Positions 4,848-64,000 of a stretch of DNA of 64,000 nt are shown piece after piece (the stretch's first letter is position 1; the number at the start of each line of letters is the position of its first letter). This stretch comes from Saprospira grandis (GTDB lineage Bacteria; Bacteroidota; Bacteroidia; Chitinophagales; Saprospiraceae), in the NCBI RefSeq assembly GCF_027594745.1, contig NZ_CP110854.1, forward strand, positions 1,116,241 through 1,180,240. Reading direction: 5' to 3'. The notes beneath the pieces were generated by a model. That model did not search any database, had not been told where the DNA came from, and worked only from the letters and a program-made list of their open reading frames with translations. Both the position numbers and the translations under genes were made by a program.

Positions 4848-4861
4848 TGCCCTACCAAGAG

Positions 4862-5278
4862 TTAACGCACAATATTTTCATGCAAAATGGCCAGCTGCTC
4901 TTTCTGGGCCAACCATTTTTTTAGGGCCAAAAAGCGAGCCTCTCGCTCAGTGCCCGAATAAATAGACAGCTCAATAACAAAGGGCCAATCTTGATAAGAG
5001 GAAAATAAAATCTTTTCTGGTTGATGATTCTGATAGACCGAAAAACTACTAAAAACCTCCTGATCAACCGACTGATAAATCTGCCCAAAAGAAGGCGATA
5101 CAGACAGCTGATAGCTCAACCCATACTGCTTTTCAAAAAGCGACAAAACGGTTTTTACATCCTCGGCCTTAGCGCCAATCTCTAAATAATACTCTACAGC
5201 TTCTGTCATACTACTGCTCGTTTGCGCCATTAAAATGCTGCTGCAAAATAATAGCAGGGGGATTAAAAAATTCTTCAT
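4862..5278 (-). CDS. Secreted hypothetical protein
   Basis: 138 aa; signal peptide MKNFLIPLLLFCSSILMAQ; ATG start. Confidence 0.5.
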   Translation of the reverse strand: MKNFLIPLLLFCSSILMAQTSSSMTEAVEYYLEIGAKAEDVKTVLSLFEKQYGLSYQLSVSPSFGQIYQSVDQEVFSSFSVYQNHQPEKILFSSYQDWPFVIELSIYSGTEREARFLALKKWLAQKEQLAILHENIVR

Positions 5279-5416
5279 ATTAACATTTTTGAGGTAAGGG
5301 GCTCAAAATAAAACATTTAGCAGAAAATTAAAAAACAAATACATTAACCGTATCAATCCTTGCAATTATAAACCTAAGCTATTAACTTAGCGATACATAA
5401 TAAAAACACAAAAATT

Positions 5417-6178: not shown

Positions 6179-6185
6179 TTGTTTT

Positions 6186-6345
6186 CTTTTTTGGGGCTGC
6201 CCCGCCCTGCGGGCGGGTCGGGCTCTGTCGCAGCTCGCAGGGCTGCTCGGCCCTGCAGGCTTTTTCGCTTTGCTTCAAAAGCCTTGGGTCTGCCGCCTTG
6301 CGGCGGCCCTGCTTTCCATCCCTCAGCCGGGGCAGTTTTCTTCGC
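6186..6345. repeat. GC-rich interspersed repeat family, copy 3
   Basis: ttttttggggctgccccgccctgcgggcgggtcgggctctgtcgcagctcgcagggctgctcggccctgcagg...ctttccatccctcagccgg. Confidence 0.85.
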
Positions 6346-6381
6346 TCCAATGGTAATTTCTAGCCACAATCTCCCCCTTCT

Positions 6382-9712: not shown

Positions 9713-9778
9713 AAAAAAATAACCAACCCTAATGCTAGAGTTGGTTATTCTTATGTCTAGAGAAGTAGAAAATTTATC

Positions 9779-11032
9779 CTAAAGACCAAAAGCCTTTTTG
9801 ATATCTTCTACACGGTCCAAACGCTCCCAAGTGAAGGTTTCCACTTGGCGTTTTTCCCAGCCCTGAGGCGTCAATACTTCTACCTCTTTCATTTCTGAAG
9901 GGCGGCCCATGTGACCATAAGCAGCAGTTTCAGAATAGATAGGATTGCGTAGGCCGAGGTTGCGAATTACGGCAGAAGGGCGAAGATCGAACAAAGAAGA
10001 AAGCGTTTTAGCGATTTCCCCATCGTTCATATCTACTTTGGCCGTGCCATAAGTGTCTACAAAAAGACCTACGGGCTCGGCTACACCAATGGCGTAAGCC
10101 ACCTGAACGAGTGCTTGATCAGCAACGCCGGCAGCCACCAAGTTTTTGGCAATGTGGCGAGTAGCATAAGCAGCAGAACGGTCTACTTTTGAAGGATCTT
10201 TACCAGAGAAAGCGCCACCACCGTGGGCACCTTTTCCACCATAAGTATCTACAATGATCTTGCGGCCGGTCAAACCAGCATCGCCATGAGGACCACCAAT
10301 AACGAACTTACCTGTGGGGTTGACGTGATAGATGATCTTGTCATCAAAAAGGGCCTGAATACGCTCGGGCAAGCTTGCTTTTACGCGGGGCACCAAGGTT
10401 TCGATCACATCCTTTTGGATTTGATCGCGCATGGCTTTTTCCTCTGCAAAATCGTCATGTTGTGTAGACAAAACGATCGTGTTGATGCGGATCGGCTGAT
10501 GGTCGTCATTGTACTCAATGGTTACCTGAGACTTGGCATCGGGGCGGAGGTAAGTCATTTCTTTACCCGCCTTGCGAATGTCTGCCAACTCTCTCAACAA
10601 ACGGTGAGAAAGGTCTAGGGCCAAAGGCATGTAGTTATCGGTTTCGTTGGTGGCAAAACCGAACATCATTCCTTGGTCACCAGCGCCCTGCTCCTCTTCT
10701 TCACGTCCCACATCTACGCCCTGCGCAATATCGGCAGATTGTTCGTGGATAGCAGACATGATTCCGCAAGAGTTGTAATCAAATTGATATTCAGCCTTAG
10801 TATAACCGATTTTATGCAAAGTTTTGCGAATCGCTTTTTGGATATCTACATAAGCTTCTGAGCGAACTTCACCGCCCACAACCACCAAACCTGTGGTCAC
10901 AAAGCTTTCACAGGCTACCTTAGAACTAGGATCATTGGCCAAAAAAGCATCTAGGATAGCATCTGAGATTTGGTCGGCTACTTTATCGGGATGCCCCTCA
11001 GAGACCGACTCTGATGTGAACAAATATGGCAT
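9779..11032 (-). CDS. metK: S-adenosylmethionine synthetase
   Basis: 417 aa; [29 protein letters not shown] and [19 protein letters not shown] motifs. Confidence 0.95.
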
Positions 11033-49641: not shown

Positions 49642-51336
49642 ATGCGCTTGCTCTCTTTTTTTGCCCTTTTCTTGCTCCTCGCCTGCCAAAATGAATCCCA
49701 AAAAGCGGAGCTGCTCATCTTTAATGGCCCTATTTATACCCTAGATAGTAGCCAAGCTCAGGTCGAAGCCCTGGCCGTAGCCAATGGGAAAATTATCGCT
49801 CTCGGAAATTGGAGCGATATCCAAAAGTATCAAAGCCCTAGTACCGAACTGCTCGATCTTAAGGGCAAAACCCTGATTCCCGCCTTTGTTGAAAGCCATG
49901 CCCATATTCTGGGCCTAGGGCAGTTTAAACGAGAACTGGACCTCAGCCAAGTCAAAAGCTATGAGGAGCTGATCCAATTGGTCCAAGAACAAGCTGCCAA
50001 AACGCCAAAAGGCGAATGGATTCTTGGCCGCGCCTGGCATCAAAGTAAATGGGACTCTCTCCCCTTTTCTATCAAAGGCTACCAAACGCATGATGCCCTC
50101 AGCCAAGCCGTCCCCGATCATCCCGTTTTGCTGATGCACGCTAGCGCCCACGCCCTAATGGCCAACGAAAAAGCCATGCAGTTGGCGGGCCTAACTCCCG
50201 AAACCCAAATGAATGAAGAAGGCGAGATTATCCGCTTTCCCAATGGCCGCCCCACAGGCATTTTTACCGAAAATGCCATGTCGATAATTAAGCAGGCCCT
50301 GCCGCCCGCCGATGAAAATAGCCGCTACCAAGATCTACAAGCGGGTATCCAAGAGGCCCTTAGCTACGGTATTGGCAGCCTGCAAGATGCAGGCTCCGAT
50401 TCTGCCGCTATTGCGCTTTACCGAAAAGCCCTGGCCCAAAATGAACTCCCGCTCCGCCTTTGGGTAATGCTGGCCTATAATAATTATGCTGCCGAGGTCC
50501 AAGGCCAAGACGATCCTTTCCTAGAAAAATGGCTGAAAAAAGGCCCCGAAAAAGGCGATTTTCTCAGTATCGGAGGCATTAAGCTTTATGCCGATGGCGC
50601 CCTAGGCTCTAGAGGCGCTTGGATGCTCGAGGAGTATAGCGACCGAGCTGGCCATTTTGGCCACCCTACTCTCCCCCTGAAAACCATTGAGAAGATTGCC
50701 GAAAAAGCCCTGCTGGCCGACTTCCAACTCTGTACTCACGCCATCGGCGACCGCGCCAACCGAGAGCTGCTCAATATTTATGAACGGGTCCTAAAAGCCC
50801 AACCCCAAGCCGCCAAAGACCACCGCTTCCGAATTGAACATGCCCAACATATTGCCCCCCAAGATATTCCCCGCTTTGCCCAGCTAGATGTTATTGCCTC
50901 GGTCCAAGGGATCCACTTTTCTTCCGATCGCCCCTGGGCCCAAAGCCGCCTAGGCCGCCTGCGCATCGCTATGGGCGCCTACCGCTGGAAACAATTGCTG
51001 GACTCTGGCGCCAAACTGATTAACGGCACCGATGCCCCCGTCGAGTCGATCAATCCGATCGCCTGCTTTTATAGCCTAGTCAGCCGCCAAGCCAATGATG
51101 GCCAAGTCTATGAAGCCGACCAAAAGCTGAGCCGCCTGCAGGCCCTAAAGGCCTATACCCTAGATGCCGCCTATGGCGCTTTTCAAGAAAAGGAAAAAGG
51201 CAGCCTAGAGCTCGGAAAGTTTGCCGATTTTGCCATCCTTTCCCAAGATATTATGCAGGTCCCGCTCCAAGATATTCCCCAAACTAAGGTCCTGCAAACT
51301 ATTGTAGATGGTAAAACGGTCTATTTGAGGGAGTAG
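49642..51336 (+). CDS. Amidohydrolase-family metal-dependent hydrolase (Amidohydro_3-type, secreted/lipoprotein)
   Basis: 564 aa. Signal/lipobox LLLACQ. Metal-binding HAH motif near the N-terminus of the barrel (FVESHAHIL). Distal HA.GD and GTD.P motifs. Confidence 0.7.
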   Translation: MRLLSFFALFLLLACQNESQKAELLIFNGPIYTLDSSQAQVEALAVANGKIIALGNWSDIQKYQSPSTELLDLKGKTLIPAFVESHAHILGLGQFKRELDLSQVKSYEELIQLVQEQAAKTPKGEWILGRAWHQSKWDSLPFSIKGYQTHDALSQAVPDHPVLLMHASAHALMANEKAMQLAGLTPETQMNEEGEIIRFPNGRPTGIFTENAMSIIKQALPPADENSRYQDLQAGIQEALSYGIGSLQDAGSDSAAIALYRKALAQNELPLRLWVMLAYNNYAAEVQGQDDPFLEKWLKKGPEKGDFLSIGGIKLYADGALGSRGAWMLEEYSDRAGHFGHPTLPLKTIEKIAEKALLADFQLCTHAIGDRANRELLNIYERVLKAQPQAAKDHRFRIEHAQHIAPQDIPRFAQLDVIASVQGIHFSSDRPWAQSRLGRLRIAMGAYRWKQLLDSGAKLINGTDAPVESINPIACFYSLVSRQANDGQVYEADQKLSRLQALKAYTLDAAYGAFQEKEKGSLELGKFADFAILSQDIMQVPLQDIPQTKVLQTIVDGKTVYLRE

Positions 51337-51341
51337 GATTT

Positions 51342-51505
51342 GGGGCGTTACTCCTTTCAGTCGTCGAACTGCGGACTAAAGTCCTTGTTGTCGCTGCGGC
51401 TTCGCCTTGCGGCGCTACGTTCCGCAGCTCGCTATTCGCTCGGCCCTGCGGCCTGACGGCCTTGGTCTGCGGCTTCGCCGCACTGCTACACATCGCTAGG
51501 CCGCT
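51342..51505. repeat. GC-rich interspersed repeat family, copy 14
   Basis: tttggggcgttactcctttcagtcgtcgaactgcggactaaagtccttgttgtcgctgcggcttcgccttgcggcgctacgttccgcagctcgctattcgctcggccctgcgg...; near-duplicate of copy 1. Confidence 0.85.
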
Positions 51506-51585
51506 CATCTGCCTTTTTCTAGCTTAAGTTTCTTCTTTGGCGGCTGGGTTGTTTTGGCCCCATGGGCTAAAGCCCATTTGCGGCA

Positions 51586-52005
51586 AGCTATTCTGCAACT
51601 ACAAAATGGCATCTTACAGTTGCGCTAAGCTATTCTGCAATTGCAAAACGGCATATTACAGTTGCGCTAAGCTATTCTGCAACTGCAAAACGGCATCTTA
51701 CAGTTGCGCTAAGCTATTCTGCAACTGCAAAATGGCATATTACAGTTGCGGCAAGCTATTCTGCAACTACAAAACGGCATCTTACAGTTGCGGCAAGCTA
51801 TTCTGCAACTGCAAAATGGCATATTACAGTTGCGGCAAGCTATTCTGCAACTACAAAATGGCATATTACAGTTGCGCTAAGCTATTCTGCAACTGCAAAA
51901 CGGCATATTACAGTTGCGCTAAGCTATTCTGCAACTGCAAAACGGCATATTACAGTTGCGCTAAGCTATTCGCAATTTGTGAAATGGCATTTGTTTGGGC
52001 CTTAG
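51586..52005. repeat. Tandem repeat, 42-bp unit x ~10, each unit with an internal 7-bp inverted repeat
   Basis: Unit agctattctgcaact(a/g)caaaa(t/c)ggcat(c/a)ttacagttgcg(c/g)(t/c)a. Phase checked at 51586, 51628, 51670, 51712, 51754, 51796, 51838, 51880, 51922, 51964. Internal stem GCAACTG...CAGTTGC. Spanned by a 158-aa ORF (51537..52013) that is probably not a real gene. Confidence 0.9.
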
Positions 52006-52084
52006 CTGGCTAGGATTTGGCCAATCATCGCCTAGGGACAAGCCCCTAGGCAGCAAAAAGGGCAAACAAAAAAGCCCAGCCACT

Positions 52085-52175
52085 CCCCTAAGGGATTCCT
52101 TAGGGAATCCCGCAGAGGGGTGGGTGGGCGGGTTATATTGCGAATGAGGAGCGCAGCGACGAATACCGCTTTTGG
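52085..52175. repeat. S hairpin module of the repeat family (third occurrence)
   Basis: agggattccttagggaatcccgcagaggggtgggtgggcgggttatattgcgaatgaggagcgcagcgacgaataccgc; compare 12985-13095 and 21335-21430. Confidence 0.8.
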
Positions 52176-52195
52176 GCCTCCTCAAGAGCAGCGCA

Positions 52196-53377
52196 TTAGG
52201 CTAATTTTTGAACGGCAGTACTCGCATCTCCATAGTTTTGGCCGGGCGCAACGCTAAGTAGATTAACGCCAGGTTTTTTACCTGGGGCAAAGCTGCCTAG
52301 TTCCTCCTCAAAGCCGAGGGCTTCGGCACCGTTTAGGGTGGCCCATTGCAAGAGTGTCTCAAAAGGGACATAAGACTGGTAGCGGCGGATAGTCTTTATC
52401 TCTTCTAGAATAGAGAGGGACCAATTAGAGGTAAGGCTATCGGTGCCTAAACAAACCTTAGCGCCTTTTTTCAAAAATGCCTGATAATTGGGCAAGCGAT
52501 TTTCGATATAGAGATTGGCATTGGGGCAGCTGGCCCAATAAACCGATTTGCCCCAGCTTTTGGCAAAAGCAATATCCTGCTCAGAAGTAAGGGTATTATG
52601 CACAAAAAGCGTTCGTTGTTCGGGGTCCATTTGCGAGAGGGCATAATGAATGGCCGTGCGGCCATTAGGCTGGAATTGGTCCAGAGAAAAACCAAACTGC
52701 CCATAAAAATCGACAAAGCCGCCTGTTCCTGTCAGGAAAAGTTCTTGTTCTGGAGGCGTCTCTTGATTGTGAATACTTACCGTATGGGCTTCTCCTTGGT
52801 TGGCGGCATTGATGCGCTCGAACAATTGGGGAGAAACAGAATAAGGGGCATGAGGCACCATCACCTTTTTGCTGCCTTCTGCTAGGGGGAGTGCATCATA
52901 AACGGCCTTATATTTTTCAAATTCGGCCTCGGCATTGGCGGCTTGTAAAAAATCGAAGCATTCGACAAAGCTATAATAGCGCAGGCGGCCCTTGGCCTTT
53001 TGGGAAAAGGTATCGGGAACATTGGTAATATCGCCTACGGCCACAATACCATTCGCAATCATTTGGTCCTCGGCCCAAGCGATAGCCTCGGCAATTTCGG
53101 TTTCGGGCGCATTGCGTCTAGACACCACCTGCTTAATAAAGTCGATGAGGCCCGTGCCCGTTTCTACTTTACCCAGCATATGAGAGAGCTCCAAATGGCA
53201 ATGGGCATTAATAAAGCCTGGGACCAAAATCCCTTCATGGATCTCGATCTCTTCATCGGGATAATTGGCCCTTTGGCCTATTTCTAGGATGCGGCCCTCA
53301 TCATCAAGGACCAAAACGCCCTCTTTGATGGGGGCTTCGCTAATTGGGTAAATATAATCGGCGCTTATTTTTCTCAT
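52196..53377 (-). CDS. Amidohydrolase-family protein (chlorohydrolase/nucleoside-deaminase-like)
   Basis: The ORF-track start 53404 is TTG; first ATG at comp 53375-77 ([16 protein letters not shown]...). [14 protein letters not shown] metal-binding motif; distal HxH...D pattern of the amidohydrolase TIM barrel. Confidence 0.7.
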
Positions 53378-53443
53378 GGTATATGTCTTTAATTTGAGGG
53401 GCAAAAATAGCTAAAACTATTGATTTTATCCTTAAAAATGCGG

Positions 53444-53590
53444 TGGACAGGCGGCGAAGCCGCCGCAGGCTGAGGGATGGACAGCAGTGGCCGTCAGGCC
53501 AGACCCAGCCGCCGCAGGCGGCGCAGGGCCGAGCGAAGAGCGAGCTGCGACACAGCCCGACCCGAGCGAAGCGAGGGGCAGCCCCAAAAT
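53444..53590. repeat. GC-rich interspersed repeat family, copy 16
   Basis: gacaggcggcgaagccgccgcaggctgagggatggacagcagtggccgtcaggccagacccagccgccgcaggcggcgcagggccgagcgaagagcgagctgcgacacagcccgacccgagcgaagcgaggggcagccccaaaa. Confidence 0.85.
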
Positions 53591-53634
53591 AGCGGCATAA
53601 AAAAAGCCTCCCTAGGGAAGCTTTTCCTTAATAT

Positions 53635-54678
53635 TTAGAGCAGCCTTAATTTCTCGGGGCCACAGCCTAATTCATCGGCTAGATGGCCGCCATTTTCGCA
53701 GAGGGGGAGCAACTCCTCCTGGAGGAAAGGCTGCACCTTAGGCTGGATTGATTTGGGGTAGAGCAGATGTAGATTGGGGCCTGCATCTAGGGTAAAATAG
53801 AGGGGGAAATTCGTTTGTTGGCGCCAATCTCGGACCTTCTCGATCAGGGCCAAACTATTGGGCTGCATCAGCAAATAAGAAGGGCGAGAAGTCATCATGA
53901 GAGCGTGTAGCATCAGGGCCTCTTCCTCGGCAATTTGGCCAAAGGTGGCCCAATCGCCAGCTTGGAGAGCGGGCAAAAGTTTGCCCAAATTCTCCTCCGC
54001 CAATTGGTAGCGAAGGGGGGCAAAAGGGTTGCCCTCCATCAGTTTGTGGCCGGCAGTACTAGAGACCGACTTCTCAGCCTGGCTCACCAGCAAAATAGTA
54101 TCTTGGACCGCCTTAAAATCATCATGCAGGAGCTCGCCGCAGGGGCTAGCCCAAAGATTAGAGCTCCCCTTTAGCTGCTTAGACTCGCCCCAAGAGGCGG
54201 CCATAGGGTAAAGCGATCGGCAGGCAGAGCCAGAGCCCAGTCGGGCAAAATAGCTGGCCTTTTGCCAAAACTCGGCCTGATCGGAAGCGGGGCCAAGGCC
54301 CAATTCGGCCGCCATATCGCAGAGGCAGAGGGCCAGAGCGCTCATGCTAGAAGCGGAGGAAGCGATGCCCGCAGAATGGGGAAAAGAATTCTTAGAATCC
54401 AGTTCTAGGGCGTATTCATCGAGAAAAGGCAGCTCTTCGAGAATGCTTTCTAGAAAACCCTGAATACGTTGGGCAAAAGCTGGTTTTTCTTGGCCTTCAA
54501 ACAAAAAGCGCAACTGAATACCGCCCTTAGCTTTGGGGCTATAGCGGAGGGTCGTTTGGCTATAGGCGGCAGAAAGCGTAAAGCTTAGCGAAGCATTTTT
54601 GGGAAGTTGGCGGCCGTATTTGCCCCAATACTTAATAATGGCAATATTGGAGGGGCTTTTCCAGCAAGTTTGATTCAT
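53635..54678 (-). CDS. mvaD: Diphosphomevalonate decarboxylase (mevalonate pathway, GHMP-kinase fold)
   Basis: 347 aa. N-terminal SPSNIAIIKYWGKY is the hallmark MVD motif. GHMP ATP-binding region GIASSASSMSALAL. Confidence 0.85.
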   Translation of the reverse strand: MNQTCWKSPSNIAIIKYWGKYGRQLPKNASLSFTLSAAYSQTTLRYSPKAKGGIQLRFLFEGQEKPAFAQRIQGFLESILEELPFLDEYALELDSKNSFPHSAGIASSASSMSALALCLCDMAAELGLGPASDQAEFWQKASYFARLGSGSACRSLYPMAASWGESKQLKGSSNLWASPCGELLHDDFKAVQDTILLVSQAEKSVSSTAGHKLMEGNPFAPLRYQLAEENLGKLLPALQAGDWATFGQIAEEEALMLHALMMTSRPSYLLMQPNSLALIEKVRDWRQQTNFPLYFTLDAGPNLHLLYPKSIQPKVQPFLQEELLPLCENGGHLADELGCGPEKLRLL

Positions 54679-54685
54679 GATATAC

Positions 54686-56188
54686 TTATTTTGATGTTGA
54701 TTCAGGGGCTTCCATAAAGCTTTGGGGCTCTAGAAAAGCAAATTGATAATATCTGAAATAAAGGGATTGCAGACCGAGAAATAGGCGGCCATCCTCTAGG
54801 GGGTAGCTCAATTCGGGACAGAGCAACTCATCTTTAAATTCGTAAGATAATAACTGTTTCTCTTTTAGCTTGCCTTGGGCATCTATTTGGGCTAGGTAGG
54901 CGCCTGATTCGCGGCCATAGAGGCCTCGATTGAAGAGCAGATACAGCTTGTCGGCCTTCTCCCAAAGGTAAGGGCGTAAAAAGCTAGCCTTAGACTTGGG
55001 AAAAGAGTTATGTTTGAGGATACTCTGCTCCCAGAGTAGCTCTCCAGCTTCAGAGAAGCAGAGCAGAAAAATATTGTGGCTTTTAAAGTTATGAATGCCA
55101 TAGGGACGTTCTTCAGCTAGGAGGATCAAGCGACCATCGGCCAGTTGTCGGAAGCTAATCGTTTTGTAATTGCGCAGCTCTGTTTTCTCCTTAATTCGCC
55201 CTAACTTCCGATGCAATAATCGGGATTTTAGCGAGTCGGAAAAGGACTGCTTATACTTTTTGAGCACCTGATTTCGGGCGGCATTTATCTTAATAAAAAA
55301 ATAGCCAGCTTGTTTATAATATTTTTTCTGCGAGTAGAGGCCCGTCCAATAAATATTGCCCTCCTCATCAAAGAGGAGCTCCATTTCATTGTAGAAAAAC
55401 TCGCCTAATTTGGGCGTAAAGCGCACAAACTCCTCCGCTTTTTGGCCCACAAAAAAGACCAGAGGGTCTGCCGTCACCTTTTTGAGTTGATAAGAGCGTT
55501 TTTCTCTAAACTGATCGCTCAGAATAGCCACCACCCCTTGATTACTAATTTTTAGTTTTTGAATGGCAATCACTCTTTTTCCGCTTTGGTTGGGAGAAAG
55601 GTCTAGCTTGCGCTCCCAAAGCAGCTGAAGACTGGCATCGAGCACCCGCAGGCGGATGCTATTGGTAAGTCCCCGAATATCTTCAATATCGCCTTCTTCC
55701 TCATAATCGTAAAGCAGCAATTTGCTCCCATCTGGAGAAAGGACAAAATTGCCTCGGTAGAGGCGCTCTGTCATATTAAAGGGAGGAATCAGGGCAATGC
55801 TATCGGGAGATAAGCGAAAACTATCGGGCAAAATTTCTTTGGCATAGAGGCTCACATCCTCATAGCGCTGAAGAGCCTTATTGTCTATATAGTAGGAATA
55901 GAGCAAATAGTTTTTGTCCTGAATGTGCATGGCTCCGCCATATTTTCGCTTTCGGTCGCTTGAAATATAGCGGCCCTTTAGCTTGAGCTGCCCATCGTAA
56001 ATTTCGGTTTCGGCCTTATCGAATTGCTTATTAAAGCGCAAAATCTGAAAGCGATTCTCCTCATACTCTAAAAGCGCATAGGTTTTATAGTTACCTAATC
56101 GCTCTTGGCGCTCGCCCAAAAATAGCCCTTGTGCGCCCAAGAATAAAGGGAAAAAGCTAATCAATAATAGAAGTATAATTTTATGCAT
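54686..56188 (-). CDS. Secreted hypothetical protein
   Basis: 500 aa; signal peptide ILLLLISFFPLFLGAQG; Y/K/L-rich, repetitive beta-rich character; no catalytic motif recognised. Confidence 0.5.
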   Translation of the reverse strand: MHKIILLLLISFFPLFLGAQGLFLGERQERLGNYKTYALLEYEENRFQILRFNKQFDKAETEIYDGQLKLKGRYISSDRKRKYGGAMHIQDKNYLLYSYYIDNKALQRYEDVSLYAKEILPDSFRLSPDSIALIPPFNMTERLYRGNFVLSPDGSKLLLYDYEEEGDIEDIRGLTNSIRLRVLDASLQLLWERKLDLSPNQSGKRVIAIQKLKISNQGVVAILSDQFREKRSYQLKKVTADPLVFFVGQKAEEFVRFTPKLGEFFYNEMELLFDEEGNIYWTGLYSQKKYYKQAGYFFIKINAARNQVLKKYKQSFSDSLKSRLLHRKLGRIKEKTELRNYKTISFRQLADGRLILLAEERPYGIHNFKSHNIFLLCFSEAGELLWEQSILKHNSFPKSKASFLRPYLWEKADKLYLLFNRGLYGRESGAYLAQIDAQGKLKEKQLLSYEFKDELLCPELSYPLEDGRLFLGLQSLYFRYYQFAFLEPQSFMEAPESTSK

Positions 56189-56364
56189 GTATAGATGATT
56201 TGATGTAAATGTACAGACTTCTTATAGAAGTCTAAACTTAGCCCTAAAGCAAATAGATGAATCTCTGGAACAATCTGGTGGTTTTAAATTAACCAAGCAA
56301 AAGAGAAACTAATTTTGATCTTTTACATTTACCAGACTTTCTATTTATCAAAATCCTTTCTAGA

Positions 56365-56679
56365 ATGATTGGTATTTTTATACTTATTGGCGTTATTCGC
56401 AATTATTGGAACTTAGCAAAAGCTAGAGGCAAGAATGCTTATTTATGGGCATTTCTATCTTTTATTATTTATTATGGCTTAATGCTACTCATGGCCATCG
56501 CCATTATGTTTTTCCTAGGAGATTATATTGAAGAAGATACCGCCTCTGAGTTCCTCTTCAATTTAGTTATTGGTATTCTATCTTTACTTTTCACTTATTT
56601 ACTAGGCCCAGTCCTTATTAAAGATGATAAGGCCCTCTCTTTGGAGGAGCAAAACGACATCTTAGATGCTGGCCTTTAA
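56365..56679 (+). CDS. Small 3-TM membrane protein, paralogue 1 of tandem array (C-terminal ...NDILDAGL)
   Basis: 104 aa; shared loop motif KNAYLWAF; C-terminal tail NDILDAGL. Confidence 0.55.
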   Translation: MIGIFILIGVIRNYWNLAKARGKNAYLWAFLSFIIYYGLMLLMAIAIMFFLGDYIEEDTASEFLFNLVIGILSLLFTYLLGPVLIKDDKALSLEEQNDILDAGL

Positions 56680-56688
56680 ATTATCATT

Positions 56689-57012
56689 ATGATCATACTC
56701 ACTATTATCCTTGCAGGCGCCCTAGCCATTGGCAAATGGTATTGGGATAGCGCCGCCGAGCAATCCCTGCCCAAACTCAAATGGCTACTCATTGGTATGG
56801 GCCTATTTATTGGCAGCTATATCCTCATCGGGATAGTGGTCTCCCTAGTTTTTCAGTTCGTTTTTGGCGATCTGGCCATTGGTATACATGAAATTGGCAA
56901 AATTCTTATTACCGCCTCTTTGGCTATTAGTGTCTGCAAATGGGGCAACAAACGCTGGCTAGAAAATTATAGCCCTCCCCAAAAATCAGATATCTTAGAT
57001 GCGGATATATAA
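56689..57012 (+). CDS. Small 3-TM membrane protein, paralogue 2 (C-terminal SDILDADI)
   Basis: 107 aa; loop LPKLKWLLIG; ends ...PPQKSDILDADI. Confidence 0.55.
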   Translation: MIILTIILAGALAIGKWYWDSAAEQSLPKLKWLLIGMGLFIGSYILIGIVVSLVFQFVFGDLAIGIHEIGKILITASLAISVCKWGNKRWLENYSPPQKSDILDADI

Positions 57013-57023
57013 ACCAGTTTCCT

Positions 57024-57335
57024 ATGCAATTGACTATTTATTTACTCCTGTTCTCTTTTTTTCTGACCTTAGTTCTTTACGGACATTACCGCCTCAAAGC
57101 TCAAGCTGCTAGACTAAATCCAGAAATTTGGGGCCTAGCTGGCCCCATGCTTTTCTTTGGCCTCAATCATTACCTCAGCCTGCTCATTATTGCCCTTCGG
57201 GAGAGCATCAGTAATATTGATTTATTTCTCGCCCTCAGTATAGCAGGCAGCCTTCTTAGCTTTGCGGCCATTTTCTTTATGGCCCCTTACCTAATTTCTA
57301 CGGTCCAAACAACAGCAGAACATGAACGCGATTAG
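57024..57335 (+). CDS. Small 3-TM membrane protein, paralogue 3 (lacks the conserved tail)
   Basis: 103 aa; loop LNPEIWGLAG; ends ...TTAEHERD; overlaps the next paralogue by 14 nt. Confidence 0.5.
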   Translation: MQLTIYLLLFSFFLTLVLYGHYRLKAQAARLNPEIWGLAGPMLFFGLNHYLSLLIIALRESISNIDLFLALSIAGSLLSFAAIFFMAPYLISTVQTTAEHERD

Positions 57336-57672
57336 CCCCCAGCTCCTCACTTATATCCTTAGCCTAATCAGCCTATTTTACTATGCTTCTCTTGCCCCTA
57401 AACACAGCAAGAACACCTTACTATGGGCAGCTTTTGGCTTTCTTTTTCAGACGGGCCTCTCTATCCTTTTCATCCTATTCAGTAAGGTATTTATCGCCCT
57501 ATTCAAAATCCTTTCTTGGCCCATCAATGATTATTGGGCGATTGGCCTGCTCCTTCTCCCCCTAATCGCCTGCGTCCTTAGCCTTAAGCTGGCCCCTTCT
57601 TTTGTTGCGCCCCAAGCAAAAGGCCCCGCTCCTTCCTCCTCCAATTCAGATATTCTAGATGCGGATATTTAG
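57322..57672 (+). CDS. Small 3-TM membrane protein, paralogue 4 (C-terminal SDILDADI)
   Basis: 116 aa; loop SKNTLLWAAFG; ends ...SSSNSDILDADI. The tail is conserved at nucleotide level with paralogue 2 (cagatat(c/t)(t/c)tagatgcggatat). Confidence 0.55.
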   Translation: MNAISPQLLTYILSLISLFYYASLAPKHSKNTLLWAAFGFLFQTGLSILFILFSKVFIALFKILSWPINDYWAIGLLLLPLIACVLSLKLAPSFVAPQAKGPAPSSSNSDILDADI

Positions 57673-57835
57673 GGGCCCGCGGCCGCCCTTTATATAGGGG
57701 CGGCCGCCGCTAGGCTACGCCGCTCGCAAGTCTGCTCGGCCCTGCAGCCCTGCGGGCTTTGGTCTGGCCCTTCGGGCCACGGCTGCGCAGCGCTGGGCCA
57801 TTTGGCCCTGCGGGCCAAGGGGGCTTCGCCCCCTA
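57672..57835. repeat. GC-rich interspersed repeat family, copy 17
   Basis: ggggcccgcggccgccctttatataggggcggccgccgctaggctacgccgctcgcaagtctgctcggccctgcagccctgcgggctttggtctggcccttcgggccacggctgcgcagcgctgggcc. Confidence 0.8.
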
Positions 57836-57864
57836 CATTCCTAAACCTAGCATAAAACACGCCC

Positions 57865-58239
57865 ATGATCAACTACTATGCTTATTACATCCCCTTCCTA
57901 CTTATGCTTGGCCTCAACTTTTATTTCTACAGAAAGAAAGCCATTCGCTACAATAAAAATCCACTAAATTGGGGACTTATTGGTCTTCTTATCTATTACG
58001 TTTGCTTTGAACTGCTCTTTCAGCTCGCCCATTTGTTATTTGCAGTTGTTGGCTACGGATACATTTTTTACACAGAGCAGTTTTCAGAAAAAGAAGAGGG
58101 ACCTCAGGTTATGTATATTCTACTTTATAGTCGCCAAGCAATAGCCTTCCTTTCCGCCTTATGGCTAAGTTTGCGCATAGGAGAATTCCTTATCCGCCCT
58201 AGTAAAAATCAGTCTAATGCCGACAATCAACAGCCCTAG
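57865..58239 (+). CDS. Small 3-TM membrane protein, divergent paralogue 5
   Basis: 124 aa; loop NKNPLNWGLIG shares the KNxxxW(G/A) motif with the four upstream paralogues. Confidence 0.45.
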   Translation: MINYYAYYIPFLLMLGLNFYFYRKKAIRYNKNPLNWGLIGLLIYYVCFELLFQLAHLLFAVVGYGYIFYTEQFSEKEEGPQVMYILLYSRQAIAFLSALWLSLRIGEFLIRPSKNQSNADNQQP

Positions 58240-58265
58240 GCCATCTGCTAAAAAGGACTGCTGCC

Positions 58266-59291
58266 CTAAGACAACCTTCTCGCTGTCTTCCTCCTATCTA
58301 TCTTGCTCTTCCCTAAGGTCCGCAATAAGCTCCCATAAGCAAAGGCCGATTTTAATTTTTGCTCCCCAGACCGTATCCGCATTTCTTCCATCGGAAAGCG
58401 CTGTATATGCCGCCCCAACTGCATTTCTTCCTTAATCCCCGCCCCGCCAAAACTAAGGTCCAAATTGGCCCGATCAAAAAAATCTAGCCCCACTTCATGG
58501 TCCGTAAAAGGAAAAGCAAAAGCCCGAATAGGCTGCGGCAGCCAAGCTGCCAACTGCTGCTGGTTTTTCTCGGTCTGATGCAATTGCTCTTCTAACGAAA
58601 GCTTTTTGTATAAAGGATGATCCCAACTATGCCCGCCTACACTAAACCCCATACTTTGCAGGGCTTTTAGCTCTTCTAGCTTTAAATAAGGTTGTTTTTG
58701 GGCCAAAAAGTCAGGGACCGAACAGCCAATTCGATCCGCCCAAGCCAAAAGTTCGCCTTCCTGAGCATGCCCCACCGAAAAAAGTAAGTCTGCTTCTTTG
58801 GTCCCCAAGGCTTTTCGCTCTTCCAAATGGCTGTAAATCAAAGCCACCAAATGCCTAAACATCAAGCACTTATTATCAATAAAAGCCCCATTGATAAAAA
58901 AAGTAGCAGGAACCCCCAAACGCAACAAAATAGGCGCAATAACATGATAACAACTACTCAGGCCATCATCAAAACTCAAATGAAAAAATGGCTTTCGAGC
59001 AGGGCGACCCGCTTCTACCCAAGCCAACAGTTCGCCTAAATCTATGGGCTCAAAATGGGCCAAAATGAGCTTTAGCTCGGCCTCAAATTGCTGAGGCGAA
59101 ATAAGCGGATAAAGGGGCGAAATATGGGGCTGCGGCTCCGCTTCTACCGCATGATAAAAGGGAAAAAACGCCTCTACCTTTGCTTTTTCTTGCCAAAAAG
59201 AAAGGGAAAAGGCCTGAGCCAATTGGTCCAGACCTTTTTTCATATTATTCTTTATCCAAGGCCCTAAGCCTTCTCTTTGGGCATAGTACAT
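58266..59291 (-). CDS. Polysaccharide deacetylase (NodB-homology, CE4) family protein
   Basis: 341 aa. Fragment 1: HLSFDDGLSS. Fragment 2: VGGHSWDHP. These are the CE4 Asp-Asp and His-His motif regions. Confidence 0.7.
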   Translation of the reverse strand: MYYAQREGLGPWIKNNMKKGLDQLAQAFSLSFWQEKAKVEAFFPFYHAVEAEPQPHISPLYPLISPQQFEAELKLILAHFEPIDLGELLAWVEAGRPARKPFFHLSFDDGLSSCYHVIAPILLRLGVPATFFINGAFIDNKCLMFRHLVALIYSHLEERKALGTKEADLLFSVGHAQEGELLAWADRIGCSVPDFLAQKQPYLKLEELKALQSMGFSVGGHSWDHPLYKKLSLEEQLHQTEKNQQQLAAWLPQPIRAFAFPFTDHEVGLDFFDRANLDLSFGGAGIKEEMQLGRHIQRFPMEEMRIRSGEQKLKSAFAYGSLLRTLGKSKIDRRKTARRLS

Positions 59292-59614
59292 TGGCCATTA
59301 AATATTGCTCCTTGTTCAACCTGCAATCGCTCACAGTCAATATCTCCTTTCAATTGAGCCGAAGCCTGCAAATAGACCAAAGCACTGGCTTTTACATTCC
59401 CCTTGCTCTCGCCCTCAGAAATCATTTCTTTGCAGTTAATCTGGCCCATCACCTTGCTTTTAGGCGCCATCACTAGGCGGCCCCCACAAGAAATTGTTCC
59501 ATGCACCTCTCCTTCCAAACGAATGTTGGCATTGGTCTCTAAACTCCCCTCGATAATGGTCCCCTGCGCCAAAATACATACATCCTTGGCGCCAATAGCT
59601 TTCTTCTCTTCCAT
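59264..59614 (-). CDS. Bactofilin (polymer-forming cytoskeletal protein, DUF583)
   Basis: 116 aa. Repetitive beta-helix pattern (GTIIEGSLETNANIRLEGEVHGTISCGGRLVMAPKSKVMGQINC). 28-nt overlap with the downstream deacetylase gene. Confidence 0.75.
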   Translation of the reverse strand: MEEKKAIGAKDVCILAQGTIIEGSLETNANIRLEGEVHGTISCGGRLVMAPKSKVMGQINCKEMISEGESKGNVKASALVYLQASAQLKGDIDCERLQVEQGAIFNGQCTMPKEKA

Positions 59615-59679
59615 AAAATTAGTTCAAATTTGGTCTTTAAGATAAGAACTTCTCCTTAATAGGCCAAGTTTTTCCTCCT

Positions 59680-59835
59680 TTTGGGGCTGCCCCGCCCTGC
59701 GGGCGGGTCGGGCTGTGTCGTGGCTCGCAGGTCTGCTCGGCCCTGCGCAAAATTTCGCTAGGCTCATTTTGCTGGGTCTGCGGCTGCGCCGCCCCACTTT
59801 CCATCCCTCAGCCGAGGCGCTCCGCGCCTGCAAAA
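59680..59835. repeat. GC-rich interspersed repeat family, copy 18
   Basis: ttttggggctgccccgccctgcgggcgggtcgggctgtgtcgtggctcgcaggtctgctcggccctgcgc...ccccactttccatccctcagccgaggcgctccgcgcctgc; near-identical to copy 5. Confidence 0.85.
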
Positions 59836-59846
59836 CGCAGTTGGAC

Positions 59847-60605
59847 CTATTTCAGGCCCCGCTTTTCACAAATCGTATCATAGGCCTCTTGCAAACGCTT
59901 AAACTTAGACTCCCCCACTTTCTGAAATTCCTCTCCCAAACTCGCCAAACTATCCGGATGATACTTCTTCACCATCTTGCGATAGGCCGCCTTTAATTGG
60001 GCATCAGAGGCAGAAGGGGGCAACTCTAAAATCTTATAATGGCTGTCCATTTCATCATAAAACATCGCCTTAATCGATACAAAATCACTATGCGGTAGGT
60101 CCAACTCCAAGCTAATGCGCTTGATGGTATCCACCTCCACCTGGTCAATACTATAATCTGCATTGGCAATGCCAAACAGAAAATAGAGCATCTGCAAGCG
60201 GGTTTCATAGCTACTGCTCAAATAAATCTGCCGACAAGTTTTGGCCATATCCCAATCTTGCTCTAAGGCCGCACTCAAAATGCCCATATATTCTTGCAAG
60301 TTATCTTGGCCAAACTGCTCGACCAAAAACTTTTGAATATAGCTCAGCTCCAACTCTTCTACTTCTCCATCTGATTTGACCACCGCCGCGGCCAAGATGA
60401 GGGAGCTCAAAATAAAGTTGATGCTGTCGTTGGGTTGTGGCAATTGTTTTTTGCGCCTTTTTGGGCCTCTCCCCCCTCCTTTTTGAAGCAGTATATCTAG
60501 AAAAAAGCCAATACCTAAACCCAGCAAAAGACCAATTGGAAAGTAGAGCAAGCCACCCAACAGCAAGCCTAGAATCTTCCCTATATGTTGTTTTAGTATC
60601 TTCAT
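59847..60605 (-). CDS. DjlA-like membrane co-chaperone (N-terminal TM, TerB-like middle, C-terminal J domain)
   Basis: 252 aa; TM helices at the N-terminus; C-terminal J domain YKILELPPSASDAQLKAAYRKMVKKYHPD. Confidence 0.7.
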   Translation of the reverse strand: MKILKQHIGKILGLLLGGLLYFPIGLLLGLGIGFFLDILLQKGGGRGPKRRKKQLPQPNDSINFILSSLILAAAVVKSDGEVEELELSYIQKFLVEQFGQDNLQEYMGILSAALEQDWDMAKTCRQIYLSSSYETRLQMLYFLFGIANADYSIDQVEVDTIKRISLELDLPHSDFVSIKAMFYDEMDSHYKILELPPSASDAQLKAAYRKMVKKYHPDSLASLGEEFQKVGESKFKRLQEAYDTICEKRGLK

Positions 60606-60610
60606 CTATG

Positions 60611-61642
60611 CTATTTTTTACCCAAGGACCAACTTTGCTGCAGCCACTCACTACTTTTTTGCCACCATTCTACAAAGGGCTGGCTTTTTTCTTCCGTTTC
60701 GGCCAATTGCTCTAAAATGGGTTGTTCGGCGCTGGGGTTTTGCTCTTCGCTCAGGATAGCCAAAAAGCGACTAATTTTGTCTATGGCCTGTTGGGCCTCT
60801 GGCACATAGGCCCAAGCAAACTGCCAAACATGCGGCATGCCCTCCCAAAGGTCCACCCAAATTTTGGCCCCAGCAGCCGCCGCTTTTTCTCCTAAGCGGC
60901 GGCTATCATCTAATAAAATTTCATCTGTACCGACCTGGACCAAAATCGGGGCCGTATCTTTCCAGTCTCCAAACAAAGGAGAAACCAAAGGCGACTTAGG
61001 ATCTGCCGAGCCATAATAAGACCTGGCCCAACTACCTGCATGCTCGGCCCGCAGAATCGGATCATTTTTTTGGCAACGCTCTAGGCTATCTCCAGACAAA
61101 GTCAGATCGGTCCAGGGCGAAAGCACCACGGCCCCCAAAGGCTGCGGCAGCTCCAAGCTTTTTAGTTTTAGTAGCAGACTAAGGACCAGCCCTCCCCCAG
61201 CCGAATCGCCCATAAAAAATATATCTTTTGGTCCATAGCCTTGGTCCAATAAATAATGATAAGCAGAAAGGGCATCATCTAGGCCAGCAGGAAAAGGATG
61301 CTCCGGCGCCAAGCGATAATTTACACTTAAAGCGGGAATGCCCGACTGCGAGACAATTTTGCCCACCAAGGCCCGATGCGCCCTAGCCGAGCCCAACAAA
61401 AAGCCCCCACCATGCAGGTATAAAATGATTTTTGGGTTCTTTTCTGCAGAAGGATGACAAAATTCGGCCGAGCAAGTAGGCAGCTCAACTTCTTGGTAAT
61501 GCAAGCCCTTGGGGGCGGGCAAACGACAAAGGGCTTTATCATGCTCTAGGCGCATTCGGTCAATATCATCTAAATAGATGAGACTCATTTGGCGCATAGC
61601 ACGCATGGCATATTTTACAAAAGTGGATTGTATACTTGGCAT
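60611..61642 (-). CDS. Alpha/beta-hydrolase fold esterase/lipase (Abhydrolase_3, HGGG + GDSAG)
   Basis: 343 aa; oxyanion-hole motif YLHGGGFLLG; nucleophile elbow GDSAGGGL; distal His in ...MPHVWQFAW. Confidence 0.8.
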   Translation of the reverse strand: MPSIQSTFVKYAMRAMRQMSLIYLDDIDRMRLEHDKALCRLPAPKGLHYQEVELPTCSAEFCHPSAEKNPKIILYLHGGGFLLGSARAHRALVGKIVSQSGIPALSVNYRLAPEHPFPAGLDDALSAYHYLLDQGYGPKDIFFMGDSAGGGLVLSLLLKLKSLELPQPLGAVVLSPWTDLTLSGDSLERCQKNDPILRAEHAGSWARSYYGSADPKSPLVSPLFGDWKDTAPILVQVGTDEILLDDSRRLGEKAAAAGAKIWVDLWEGMPHVWQFAWAYVPEAQQAIDKISRFLAILSEEQNPSAEQPILEQLAETEEKSQPFVEWWQKSSEWLQQSWSLGKK

Positions 61643-61692
61643 AATTCTGACTTAATTAAACGCATAATAGACCTAAAGCATCAAAAAGGGCC

Positions 61693-61845
61693 ATGGCCCA
61701 GCGCTGCGGAGCGGGTGGCCGAAGGCCAGACCAAAGGCAGGCTGCGCCTGCCTGCAGGGCCGAGCAGACCTGCGAGCCCCGCAGCATAGCGGCGGCCGAC
61801 CTAGGCGCAGCCTAGCCGGCCGCGGGCCCCAAAAAAAACGAAATC
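61693..61845. repeat. GC-rich interspersed repeat family, copy 19
   Basis: cccagcgctgcggagcgggtggccgaaggccagaccaaaggcaggctgcgcctgcctgcagggccgagcagacctgcgagccccgcagcatagcggcggccgacctaggcgcagcctagccggccgcgggccccaaaa; near-identical to copy 4. Confidence 0.85.
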
Positions 61846-61990
61846 GTATAGGGCTTTAAGTCTTTAGAAACAGAAAAATAACAAAGATAAAGAAGGCGCA
61901 GTTAAAAAATCGGTTATTTTACTTTTCAGCACCCCAGTTGCGCCTTATCTTTTGCCAGCTAATTGAGTTTCACCTAATTTAATAGAACTT

Positions 61991-63997
61991 ATGCCAAACT
62001 TATTAAAACTTGCCCTACTGGCCCTCCTCTTCTTGCCGCTTCATTTGAGCGCTCAAGACTCGGATGGCCTTTATAATGTCAATATGAAATTTTATCATCT
62101 CGACTTGTATATAGACATCGACAAGCCCCAAATTAAGGGCTCGGTCTATATTGAGTTTGTGGCCGTGAAGGACCAAATAGACGAGCTCTACTTGGACCTT
62201 GGCGAGGGGATGAAAATAAGTAAAATTGATGGGGCCAGCGCTTTTGAGCGAGAAGGAGAGGAAATTCTAGTCAAATTATCGGGCCGCCCATTACGCAAAG
62301 AAGAAAGAGGCAAAATTACGGTTCATTATGAGGGCGTTCCGCAAAACGAACAGCTGGATGTAGACGGAGAAACCGTGACCAAGGGCCTATTAGTTAAAAA
62401 CCGTGGAAAAGATAAATTTCAGAGTCGCTTAGTTGCCCTAGCGGCCTATCCGCAGGCGGGTTACCGCTGGTTTCCCTGCCGCAGAGGTATTGGCGACAAA
62501 GTCGATTCGGTTTATGTAGATGTGACGATTCCCGTTCGTTTTAGTACGGCTATGGTGCAAGAAAAAGAGCGCAAAATTCCTTATACGGCTGTTTCTAATG
62601 GCGTTTTGGAAGGGACCGAAATCTTGGAAGATGGCAAAAAAAGAAAGTTCAAATGGCGGCATCGCCACCGCATTGCCCCCCATCATTTGACCATAGCCAT
62701 CTCTAATTTTGCAAAAATGGAAGTGGAGTACAAGGCCAAGGGCTACAGCTTCCCGATCAACTTTTATATCTTTCCCGAGCATCTAGAAGAGGCCAATGCC
62801 ACCATCAATCGCTCTAAGGAAATTATGGCTTGTTTGAGCCGTACCTTTGGCCCCTACCCCTATAAAGATGAGGGCTTTAGCGTGATTGAGCTGGGCTTGC
62901 CCTTAGGCTTGGACGGTATGCCCACCCAAACCGCCGTTTTGGTAGAAGACCTCAAGAGTTTTCATATGTACCAAGTGGTGCACCAAGCCGCCAATATGTG
63001 GTTTGGCAATCATATTTCGCCAGAAGCTTGGCAGGATGCCTGGATCACCGAAGCCCTAGCCACCTATGCCGAGGCCACTTGGCAGGAGTATAAGCGGGGG
63101 CTCAATGTTTACCAAATCATTTTGGACCAAAAAGAATACTATGAGGGCGGCAAACTCTATCTGGACAATATCAATGAGTACTCTCAAGAACGCCTTTCTA
63201 AAAAGGGAATGTACGTCATTCACATGCTCCGGGGCATTATGGGCGATGAGTATTTTTATGAAACCCTAAAGGGAATTACAGAGCTCAAAAGAGGCAAAAG
63301 CACTTATCTGAGCACCCAGCGCTTTAGAGAAATTTGTGAATATTACGCCAGCGAAAATGAGCCCAAGGACTTTAAATACTTCTTTGACCAATGGGTCTTT
63401 GGCGAGTACTACCCCACTTATAAGGTAGAATATGAAAAAACCCGCAGCGGCGTCAATCTTCGGGTCCTACAAGAAAAAGTAGAGGGCCAAAAACAGTTTT
63501 TCGAGATGCCCGCCCGCATCCGCTTTACCCTAGAAGATGGCAGCACTGTAGAAAAGGTTGTGCAACTCAAAGCCCTAGCCGATCAAACGATAGAAATTGA
63601 GCTCGATAAAGACTTTAATCAACTTGAGTTCGATCCCTTCAACTGGATTTTCAAGGACCTCCAATATAGCCGAGAAATCTTGTCTGGCCGCAGCCCCATT
63701 GAAAACATGAGCATCAAGACCAGCCAGGGCCGCCGCAAAATTGCCCTCAGTTTTGAGAGCCCCAAAAAGCAAAATATCGAGATTCAGCTCATTCAAAAAG
63801 CCAATGGCGTAGATATTCTGGAGGATAAAATTCTCCAAAGCCAAGAAATCAAAAAGGTAAAAGGCAAAAAAGAGCTCAGCTTCAAATTGCCTGTTCCGCC
63901 CAAAAGCCGAGGCGTTTTTGAGCTCAAAATTATCGGGAAATCAGATATTTTCTCTAAAACAATTCGCGTGACGCAATTAGAAAAGCGCTTTAAGTAA
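61991..63997 (+). CDS. Secreted M1-peptidase-like protein with a non-canonical zinc-binding motif
   Basis: 668 aa; signal peptide. VHQAANMWFGN...WITEALATYAE aligns to the M1 HExxH-x-WFGN...WLNEGFAxY region. The catalytic Glu and the second His are replaced (HQAAN). Confidence 0.55.
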   Translation: MPNLLKLALLALLFLPLHLSAQDSDGLYNVNMKFYHLDLYIDIDKPQIKGSVYIEFVAVKDQIDELYLDLGEGMKISKIDGASAFEREGEEILVKLSGRPLRKEERGKITVHYEGVPQNEQLDVDGETVTKGLLVKNRGKDKFQSRLVALAAYPQAGYRWFPCRRGIGDKVDSVYVDVTIPVRFSTAMVQEKERKIPYTAVSNGVLEGTEILEDGKKRKFKWRHRHRIAPHHLTIAISNFAKMEVEYKAKGYSFPINFYIFPEHLEEANATINRSKEIMACLSRTFGPYPYKDEGFSVIELGLPLGLDGMPTQTAVLVEDLKSFHMYQVVHQAANMWFGNHISPEAWQDAWITEALATYAEATWQEYKRGLNVYQIILDQKEYYEGGKLYLDNINEYSQERLSKKGMYVIHMLRGIMGDEYFYETLKGITELKRGKSTYLSTQRFREICEYYASENEPKDFKYFFDQWVFGEYYPTYKVEYEKTRSGVNLRVLQEKVEGQKQFFEMPARIRFTLEDGSTVEKVVQLKALADQTIEIELDKDFNQLEFDPFNWIFKDLQYSREILSGRSPIENMSIKTSQGRRKIALSFESPKKQNIEIQLIQKANGVDILEDKILQSQEIKKVKGKKELSFKLPVPPKSRGVFELKIIGKSDIFSKTIRVTQLEKRFK

Positions 63998-64000
63998 TTC

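Follow-up and report, generated by a model that had tools for sequence, protein, structure and literature searches.

The 64,000-nt window analysed here, a continuous stretch of the Saprospira grandis contig NZ_CP110854.1 (positions 1,116,241 to 1,180,240 of the forward strand), carries at nt 56365–58239 an array of five small plus-strand genes, here designated p1 to p5 (WBM75516–WBM75520), each annotated as "hypothetical protein". As judged by sequence comparison, the five products are deeply diverged true paralogues and belong to a previously uncatalogued, multi-phylum family of inner-membrane proteins with three transmembrane (TM) helices. In Bacteroidota, and only there, the C-terminal linker of these proteins ends in an acidic-hydrophobic motif, [DEN]-Φ-L-D-x-[DN]-Φ (Φ, hydrophobic residue), whose version in the array is (S/N)DILDA(D/G)(I/L). 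The explanation we favour, to which we assign a probability of about 0.4, is that the array encodes co-expressed membrane adaptors or oligomer subunits, sharing a cytoplasmic face and a docking tail and differing on the periplasmic side.

All five open reading frames (ORFs) reported in a preliminary description of the region were found on the plus strand exactly where that description had placed them. The first gene, p1 (nt 56365–56679), codes for a three-TM protein of 104 aa whose tail reads NDILDAGL (nt 56653–56676), and is followed after 9 nt by p2 (nt 56689–57012; 107 aa; tail SDILDADI at nt 56986–57009) and, after further 11 nt, by p3 (nt 57024–57335; 103 aa), which ends in AEHERD and has no ΦLD tail. 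The p3 gene overlaps by 14 nt with p4 (nt 57322–57672; 116 aa; tail SDILDADI at nt 57646–57669), and a spacer of 192 nt separates p4 from p5 (nt 57865–58239), whose 124-aa product has a longer loop on the periplasmic side, lacks a ΦLD tail and ends in the conserved NADNQQP. The first-loop motifs and the tails of p1, p2 and p4 quoted in the preliminary description are all present, and its assignment of three hydrophobic helices to each protein agrees with an AlphaFold model for p1 and with hydropathy and alignment for p2–p5.

Direct evidence of paralogy among the five proteins is thin, with pairwise identities of 16–27%, block-shuffle p values from 0.002 to 0.36 and hhalign P values from 5e-4 to 0.28, the best alignment of each pair being centred on the motif Y..A....KN...W. 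Word-indexed homologue searches, starting from p4, from the alignment of the five paralogues or from a 21-sequence alignment, retrieved Saprospira orthologues only, the index missing distant relatives. An exhaustive HMMER search with the Saprospira profile led to the identification of distant proteins of about 100 aa sharing the N-terminal motif, with tails such as DDILDADL, KILDADLMK, DLLDSNL, DLLDSDL and NILDHNID. A degenerate DNA pattern derived from these relatives (M1, [FY]14, A18, W28-[GA]-x-[ILV]-G32, then [FY][FY]) was scanned in one genome per GTDB species and gave 59 matches, about 45 of them encoding family members, with about nine chance matches expected from its information content. 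A family hidden Markov model (HMM) was then available from 43 sequences, none of them from Saprospira, and was searched against the 2024 ORFs of at least 60 aa from all loci, 205 of which lie in the window. Among these 205 it matched p1–p5 alone, with E-values of 2.7e-14 for p1, the most canonical member of the array, 3.1e-6 for p2, 1.6e-4 for p3, 2.4e-4 for p4 and 1.8e-6 for p5. Since a model built without Saprospira sequences finds precisely these five ORFs of the window, they are assigned to one family, and the paralogy proposed in the preliminary description is thereby upheld.

The alignment of 50 sequences defines proteins of about 90–125 aa in which TM1 starts at residue 1–2 and is followed by a short (about 10 residues) basic loop 1 carrying A18 and N24, then by W28, which opens TM2 in the context W-(G/A)-x-Φ-G-x-x-x-(Y/F)(Y/F). 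TM2 often ends in Pro and leads to an acidic loop 2, variable in length and sequence, to TM3, to a group of basic residues and finally to a polar linker. A18 is invariant, and W28 and G32 are conserved in at least 90% of the sequences. The five window proteins share the length range, the three helices, the basic loop 1 and the acidic loop 2; the signature Ala and Trp occur in all of them, G32 is missing from p1, and Pro-Lys replaces Lys-Asn in p2. In the AlphaFold model of p1 (mean pLDDT confidence score 81) the helices span residues 2–20, 25–51 and 59–84, with an additional low-confidence helix in the tail. Loop 1 contains 2.3 K+R per 10 residues, and loop 2 contains 2.0 D+E versus 0.9 K+R; in some members TM3 is followed by a C-terminal fusion to zinc ribbons (P0048, L064) or to TPR repeats (L052). 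From this charge distribution and these fusions we infer an N-out/C-in topology, which would place loop 1 and the tail in the cytoplasm. Two further proteins (P0044, L062) are fused C-terminally to an additional TM helix and a large domain. A dual-topology pairing of the EmrE or Fluc type was discarded, the K/R bias being identical in all five proteins of the array.

Within Bacteroidota the family was found in Saprospiraceae, Flavobacteriales, Cytophagales and Chitinophagales, and beyond this phylum in Planctomycetota, in Proteobacteria (Methylococcaceae, Rhodospirillaceae and others), and in single Acidobacteriaceae and unclassified metagenome-assembled genomes (MAGs). Outside Saprospira the gene is usually single; three Flavobacteriales MAGs (L035, L041, L044) have tandem pairs of it, and two Methylococcaceae MAGs carry a second copy that is not linked to the first; among the loci found, the five-gene array occurs in Saprospira only. 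Neither p1–p5 nor their relatives belong to a curated family in Pfam, NCBIfam, PADLOC, PHROGs or PDB, in accordance with the earlier remark that no described family could be recognised. Matches to Pfam and NCBIfam models were scattered and below threshold, any one model matching at most six of the 50 members (DUF3792 the most), and the scans of the five proteins against PADLOC and PHROGs gave nothing significant. A Foldseek comparison of the p1 model with PDB and BFVD returned no match with E < 1, and a profile search of PDB sequences returned only chance matches to BAX, with E of about 0.7–0.9. Small antiporter subunits of the Mrp type were rejected, no Pfam match supporting them, and a literature search found nothing on these proteins.

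When the tail is defined as a [DENS]-Φ-Φ-D core inside the final 14 residues, 18 of the 28 members from Bacteroidota have it versus none of the 19 others (Fisher p = 6e-6), and in the window p1, p2 and p4 have it, p3 and p5 do not; several further Bacteroidota members have looser tails, such as GLLDQDL, GFLDSGL or KVLDQE. The tail of the array, which might have been taken for a peculiarity of Saprospira, is instead the local form of a motif found across Bacteroidota. It is not a general sorting signal, since only two non-family ORFs of the 2024 share the ending. The position of the ΦLD core varies from 1 to 16 residues from the C-terminus across members, thus the free C-terminal carboxylate is probably not the recognised element; a ligand of PDZ domains or of tail-specific proteases was rejected as unlikely, given a tail of probable cytoplasmic location and a core that is not always terminal.

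A degenerate DNA pattern covering the tail and the stop codon has three matches in the window and none in 100 shuffles. Four of the nine codons, stop included, differ between the p2 and p4 tails, and all four differences are synonymous, pointing to selection on the peptide and not to recent gene conversion, which was accordingly rejected as the source of the two identical tails. The conservation at nucleotide level highlighted in the preliminary description is no greater than expected from the identity of the amino acids. In Saprospira, p1 and p4 evolve fast, with overall identities to their orthologues of 39% and 49%, and the tail is one of the blocks best conserved in them; the sister-lineage orthologue of p4 still ends in SDILDADL. 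The preliminary description had named absence of the tail from orthologous arrays as a finding that would speak against it: the orthologues of p1 and p4 still carry the tail, and in p2 of one sister lineage it has degenerated.

A conserved acidic-hydrophobic motif on a variable polar tether is how short linear docking motifs are built, and the tail would fit this description. According to the explanation favoured here, the tail would recruit, or be recognised by, a cytoplasmic partner specific to Bacteroidota, and the TM core would pack into homo- or hetero-oligomers through the small-x-x-small motif in TM2. The tightly spaced and partly overlapping genes would be expressed together and their products would assemble or act jointly, as subunits presenting a common cytoplasmic face and different periplasm-facing segments, p3 and p5 being tail-less variants. 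Co-expression is suggested by the gaps of 9 and 11 nt, by the 14-nt overlap, by a single -7-like box upstream of p1 and by a gene order retained in three further Saprospira lineages. This box, TAATTTTG (nt 56310–56317, plus strand), precedes the p1 start codon by 48 nt and fits TAnnTTTG, the -7 consensus of Bacteroidota sigma-A promoters. A pattern scan of nt 56150–58300 retrieved it as the sole intergenic match, the other three matches falling inside p3 and p5; TAATTTTG is a candidate promoter element. The layout is consistent with one transcript for p1–p4, possibly including p5.

Several observations weigh against this explanation. Oligomerisation is deduced from the GxxG-like motif and the gene spacing only; p3 and p5 have no tail; and the p2 tail has degenerated in the sister lineage L004, though p2 is otherwise conserved there (83% overall). 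The motif definition is loose, the ΦLD core lying up to 16 residues from the end in some Flavobacteriales. A clustering of neighbouring genes over the approximately 45 loci found none common to more than four, so that guilt by association fails and no neighbour hints at the partner. Finally, in S. grandis strain Lewin p5 is disrupted by an insertion sequence (IS), and at least that subunit would thus be dispensable in culture.

A more specific form of the adaptor explanation can be envisaged, which we regard as doubtful. The proteins would be modular inner-membrane adaptors whose conserved cytoplasmic face (loop 1 and the ΦLDxDΦ tail) plugs into a machine specific to Bacteroidota, and whose periplasm-facing half of TM2, loop 2 and TM3 form a variable "reader"; the array would in that case supply a set of alternative readers, or of hetero-oligomer subunits, expressed together, with p1 diversifying under the pressure of an external ligand, toxin or phage.

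The array and its flanking genes are also present in strain Lewin (L071), in Saprospira sp. CCB-QB6 and in metagenomic Saprospira lineages (L001, L003–L005, L072). The ratio of non-synonymous to synonymous substitution rates (dN/dS) of the five genes is 0.18–0.35 when compared with the sister lineage L004, therefore below 1 over each whole gene, versus 0.02–0.11 for the flanking genes, and 0.03–0.67 when compared with strain Lewin; these values indicate that the five genes are coding and under purifying, albeit relaxed, selection. Identity to the L004 orthologues is 39% for p1, 55% for p3 and 49% for p4, and 83% and 92% for p2 and p5, respectively, with neighbouring genes at 82–98%. Residues 39–64 of p1, corresponding to the outer part of TM2 and the periplasmic loop, form a segment that is hypervariable among strains of S. 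grandis: Lewin is separated there from the window strain by 19.5 non-synonymous and 2.5 synonymous differences (dN/dS 2.66), and the rest of the gene has a dN/dS of 0.10–0.23 with synonymous divergence uniform along the gene. Non-synonymous changes are concentrated in this segment relative to the rest of p1 (p = 5e-9), and the excess of dN over dS within it is not significant (p = 0.15). The local diversification proposed in the preliminary description is thus supported for p1, p3 and p4.

The amplification proposed together with it, understood as recent duplication, did not hold. Each paralogue scores better against members of other phyla or orders than against its array neighbours, and for this reason the array is not considered a recent amplification. 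In addition, the segment CKWGNKRW following TM3 in p2 resembles the K-W-x-x-K-R-W of a distinct subfamily (L028, P0040, P0046, L051, L056), and p2 is highly conserved inside Saprospira except for the tail loss already mentioned. In strain Lewin (CP002831.1) an IS3-family element at nt 9725–10830 of the locus, with an HTH_Tnp_1 orfA and an rve orfB, splits p5 into fragments of 67 and 70 aa, at a point corresponding to nt ~58050 of the window; the Lewin locus is preceded by a second rve transposase gene. The synonymous divergence (dS) of p5 from the sister lineage (L004, nt 4848–5222) is 0.15, that of neighbouring genes 0.3–1.8, which suggests that this segment has recently recombined or been transferred from one lineage to another.

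Small multi-TM proteins in tandem array, three of which diverge five to ten times faster than their flanks, with a hotspot of change in the periplasm-facing loop of p1 and with p5 dispensable in Lewin, recall an immunity or exclusion cassette, as the preliminary description had suggested: the proteins would neutralise membrane-acting toxins (bacteriocins, contact-dependent effectors or effectors of the type VI secretion system) or block phage entry, and the array would collect specificities. We consider this unlikely. No toxin, secretion, phage or defence gene adjoins the array, neither PADLOC nor PHROGs gave a match, and most of the approximately 45 homologues stand as single genes among housekeeping genes that vary from locus to locus, with neither a recurrent neighbour nor a toxin, phage or defence gene beside them. 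The family DNA pattern has no match in 2.9 million viral contigs, versus 59 in genomes. The dN/dS of the p1 loop is not significantly above 1, and a conserved cytoplasmic tail would be unexpected for a purely membrane or periplasmic immunity role.

The tail could alternatively act as a C-terminal degron, read by an AAA+ protease of the cytoplasm or the membrane, and serve regulated turnover instead of partner recruitment. A conserved motif that is restricted to one phylum and displayed by a flexible linker close to, or at, the C-terminus would suit a degron, and its loss without gene loss (p3, p5, and p2 in L004) is what would be expected if the tail tuned protein abundance. Known bacterial C-degrons are mostly non-polar, such as the ...LAA of ssrA; on the contrary, the motif is acidic, it is non-terminal in several members, and the family has no linked protease gene. 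The degron is ranked as less likely than the docking motif, and its overall probability is low.

The genomic surroundings introduce a further possibility. Upstream and divergent from the array, in every Saprospira locus, is the gene for a 500-aa secreted protein (nt 54686–56188, minus strand; signal peptide MHKIILLLLISFFPLFLGAQ), beyond which lies mevalonate diphosphate decarboxylase; the secreted protein has no match in Pfam, PHROGs or PADLOC and is not found beside family members in other taxa. Downstream and convergent are the genes for a polysaccharide deacetylase (nt 58266–59291, minus strand), a bactofilin (nt 59264–59614, minus strand), a TerB-DnaJ protein and an alpha/beta hydrolase. 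The bactofilin gene overlaps the start of the deacetylase gene by 28 nt, suggesting that the two form a conserved operon; the TerB-DnaJ (DjlA-like) gene precedes bactofilin in the same orientation, and the three genes may represent a cell-shape or envelope module of this helical filamentous host.

In the sister lineages L003 and L004 a gene for a 385-aa multi-TM protein, similar to PMT_2 (GT-C type; 25.7 bits versus a cut-off of 26.1), overlaps the p5 stop codon by 23 nt (L004, nt 5200–6357). In the window about 1.08 kb of it, intact in L003/L004, have been deleted (blastn break 58248/58291), leaving a scar at nt 58217–58290 (plus strand) that retains the first ~11 codons (MPTINSPRPSA, nt 58217–58249). 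The overlap with p5 suggests translational coupling, and the deacetylase and bactofilin genes lie directly downstream in all Saprospira loci; the membrane-spanning regions of STT3, OST3 and GtrA are also recurrent sub-threshold matches of several family members. The array proteins could hence be accessory subunits in the metabolism of envelope glycans or of polyprenyl-phosphate-linked sugars, working with the GT-C-type glycosyltransferase and with the neighbouring deacetylase and bactofilin. This role appears improbable, as S. grandis (the window strain as well as Lewin) has lost the PMT_2-like gene and retained the array, the deacetylase and bactofilin genes run in the opposite direction to the array, no glycosyltransferase neighbour is common to the homologues elsewhere, and all Pfam matches are below cut-off, any one family matching at most 4–6 of the 50 members.

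The p4–p5 spacer is mostly occupied by a copy (nt 57673–57836, plus strand) of a GC-rich dispersed repeat, which is no part of the protein family. This copy is strongly structured (minimum free energy -107.8 kcal/mol, z -3.9) and may terminate or attenuate transcription ahead of p5. The repeat, of about 165–190 nt, occurs in 11 copies in the window, the other cores being at nt 2252, 6233, 9629, 12826, 21542, 37134, 41887, 44342, 59723 and 61754. Its hairpin stems vary among copies and remain complementary, and the single-stranded linkers between the hairpins are conserved (TTTGGGGCC, GGCTCGCAGGTCTGCTCGGCCCTGC, GGTCTG and CATCxCTxxGCC). An Rfam scan of nt 50000–64000 gave no match for it, and nothing on the repeat was found in the literature. 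Judging from its sequence and predicted folding, it looks like a REP/MITE-like (repetitive extragenic palindromic or miniature inverted-repeat transposable) element or a structured-RNA element, very abundant in Saprospira.

Holin-like or other pore- or channel-forming proteins, in which the charged cytoplasmic tail would set the timing as in class I holins, are another possibility. The size of about 100 aa, the three TM helices, the putative N-out/C-in topology and the charged C-terminus correspond to the class I holin layout, the GxxG-like motif of TM2 suggests oligomerisation, and weak matches to holins do occur: two of the 50 members match Phage_holin_3_6 below threshold, and a holin annotation is found on some BFVD matches of low rank and no significance. 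All of these matches, however, are far from threshold (best Pfam E 0.045, BFVD E of at least 1.3), neither endolysin nor phage genes are close by, p1 has no relatives in viral contigs, where the family pattern is likewise absent, and the gene is chromosomal and conserved over three phyla. A holin-like function is accordingly given little credit.

The adaptor or subunit explanation remains the one we prefer; each of the four alternatives lacks the setting by which it would be recognised. The newly defined family of small membrane proteins, present in at least three phyla and absent from Pfam, NCBIfam and PDB, can be recognised by its alignment, by the signature positions and by a DNA pattern usable in searches. 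The phylum-restricted C-terminal linear motif offers an experimental handle: a tail peptide, such as PSSSNSDILDADI, could be used as bait for the putative Bacteroidota-specific cytoplasmic partner, and the Saprospira array supplies natural variants for the dissection of the motif, tailed, tail-less, with a degenerated tail and IS-disrupted. If the partner proved to be a known machine, of envelope synthesis, motility or secretion, or proteolysis, the family would represent a new regulatory layer of it; if no partner emerged, it would be one more conserved protein without an assigned role.

As to known systems, class I holins of the lambda S105 type, which have about 100 aa, three TM helices, an N-out/C-in topology and a charged cytoplasmic C-terminus, resemble the family in layout only. 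Unlike them, the family has no sequence or significant fold match to holins and no lysis cassette nearby, and it is chromosomal, conserved across phyla and, by the pattern scan, absent from viral contigs; none of p1–p5 belongs to a curated holin family in Pfam or PHROGs, and the two relatives that match Phage_holin_3_6 do so with E of at least 0.045. The immunity proteins of pore-forming bacteriocins and of polymorphic-toxin loci are likewise small and multi-TM, sometimes in tandem, and have fast-evolving exposed segments; the family of the array differs from them in having no adjacent toxin, here or at its approximately 45 homologues, in its conserved cytoplasmic tail and in being mostly single-copy elsewhere.

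DUF3792/TIGR04086, the commonest sub-threshold match, comprises membrane proteins of about 115 aa without an assigned function, and six of the 50 members match it weakly over loop 1 and TM2. These matches reach 14–20 bits against cut-offs of 30–31 (the best one 19.6 versus 31.3) and do not amount to membership, and p1–p5 do not match DUF3792/TIGR04086 even at E ≤ 1. The GtrA-like TM domain (PF04138) is the top Pfam match of p1 (E 0.049); it is similar in size, and a GT-C-like gene appears coupled to p5 in the sister lineage. The score of p1 is, on the contrary, 14.3 bits versus a cut-off of 26.1, the TM helices number four in GtrA and three in the family, and p1 alone matches.

For the tail, the closest parallels are the C-terminal tip of SSB, the C-terminal peptide of FtsZ and the EEVD of Hsp70, acidic-hydrophobic docking peptides carried on flexible linkers. 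As in these proteins, a low-complexity linker leads to a short motif of acidic and hydrophobic residues, close to or at the C-terminus, with the motif conserved and the linker variable. The tail of the family differs from them in sequence, in its location on a membrane protein and in not being always strictly terminal.

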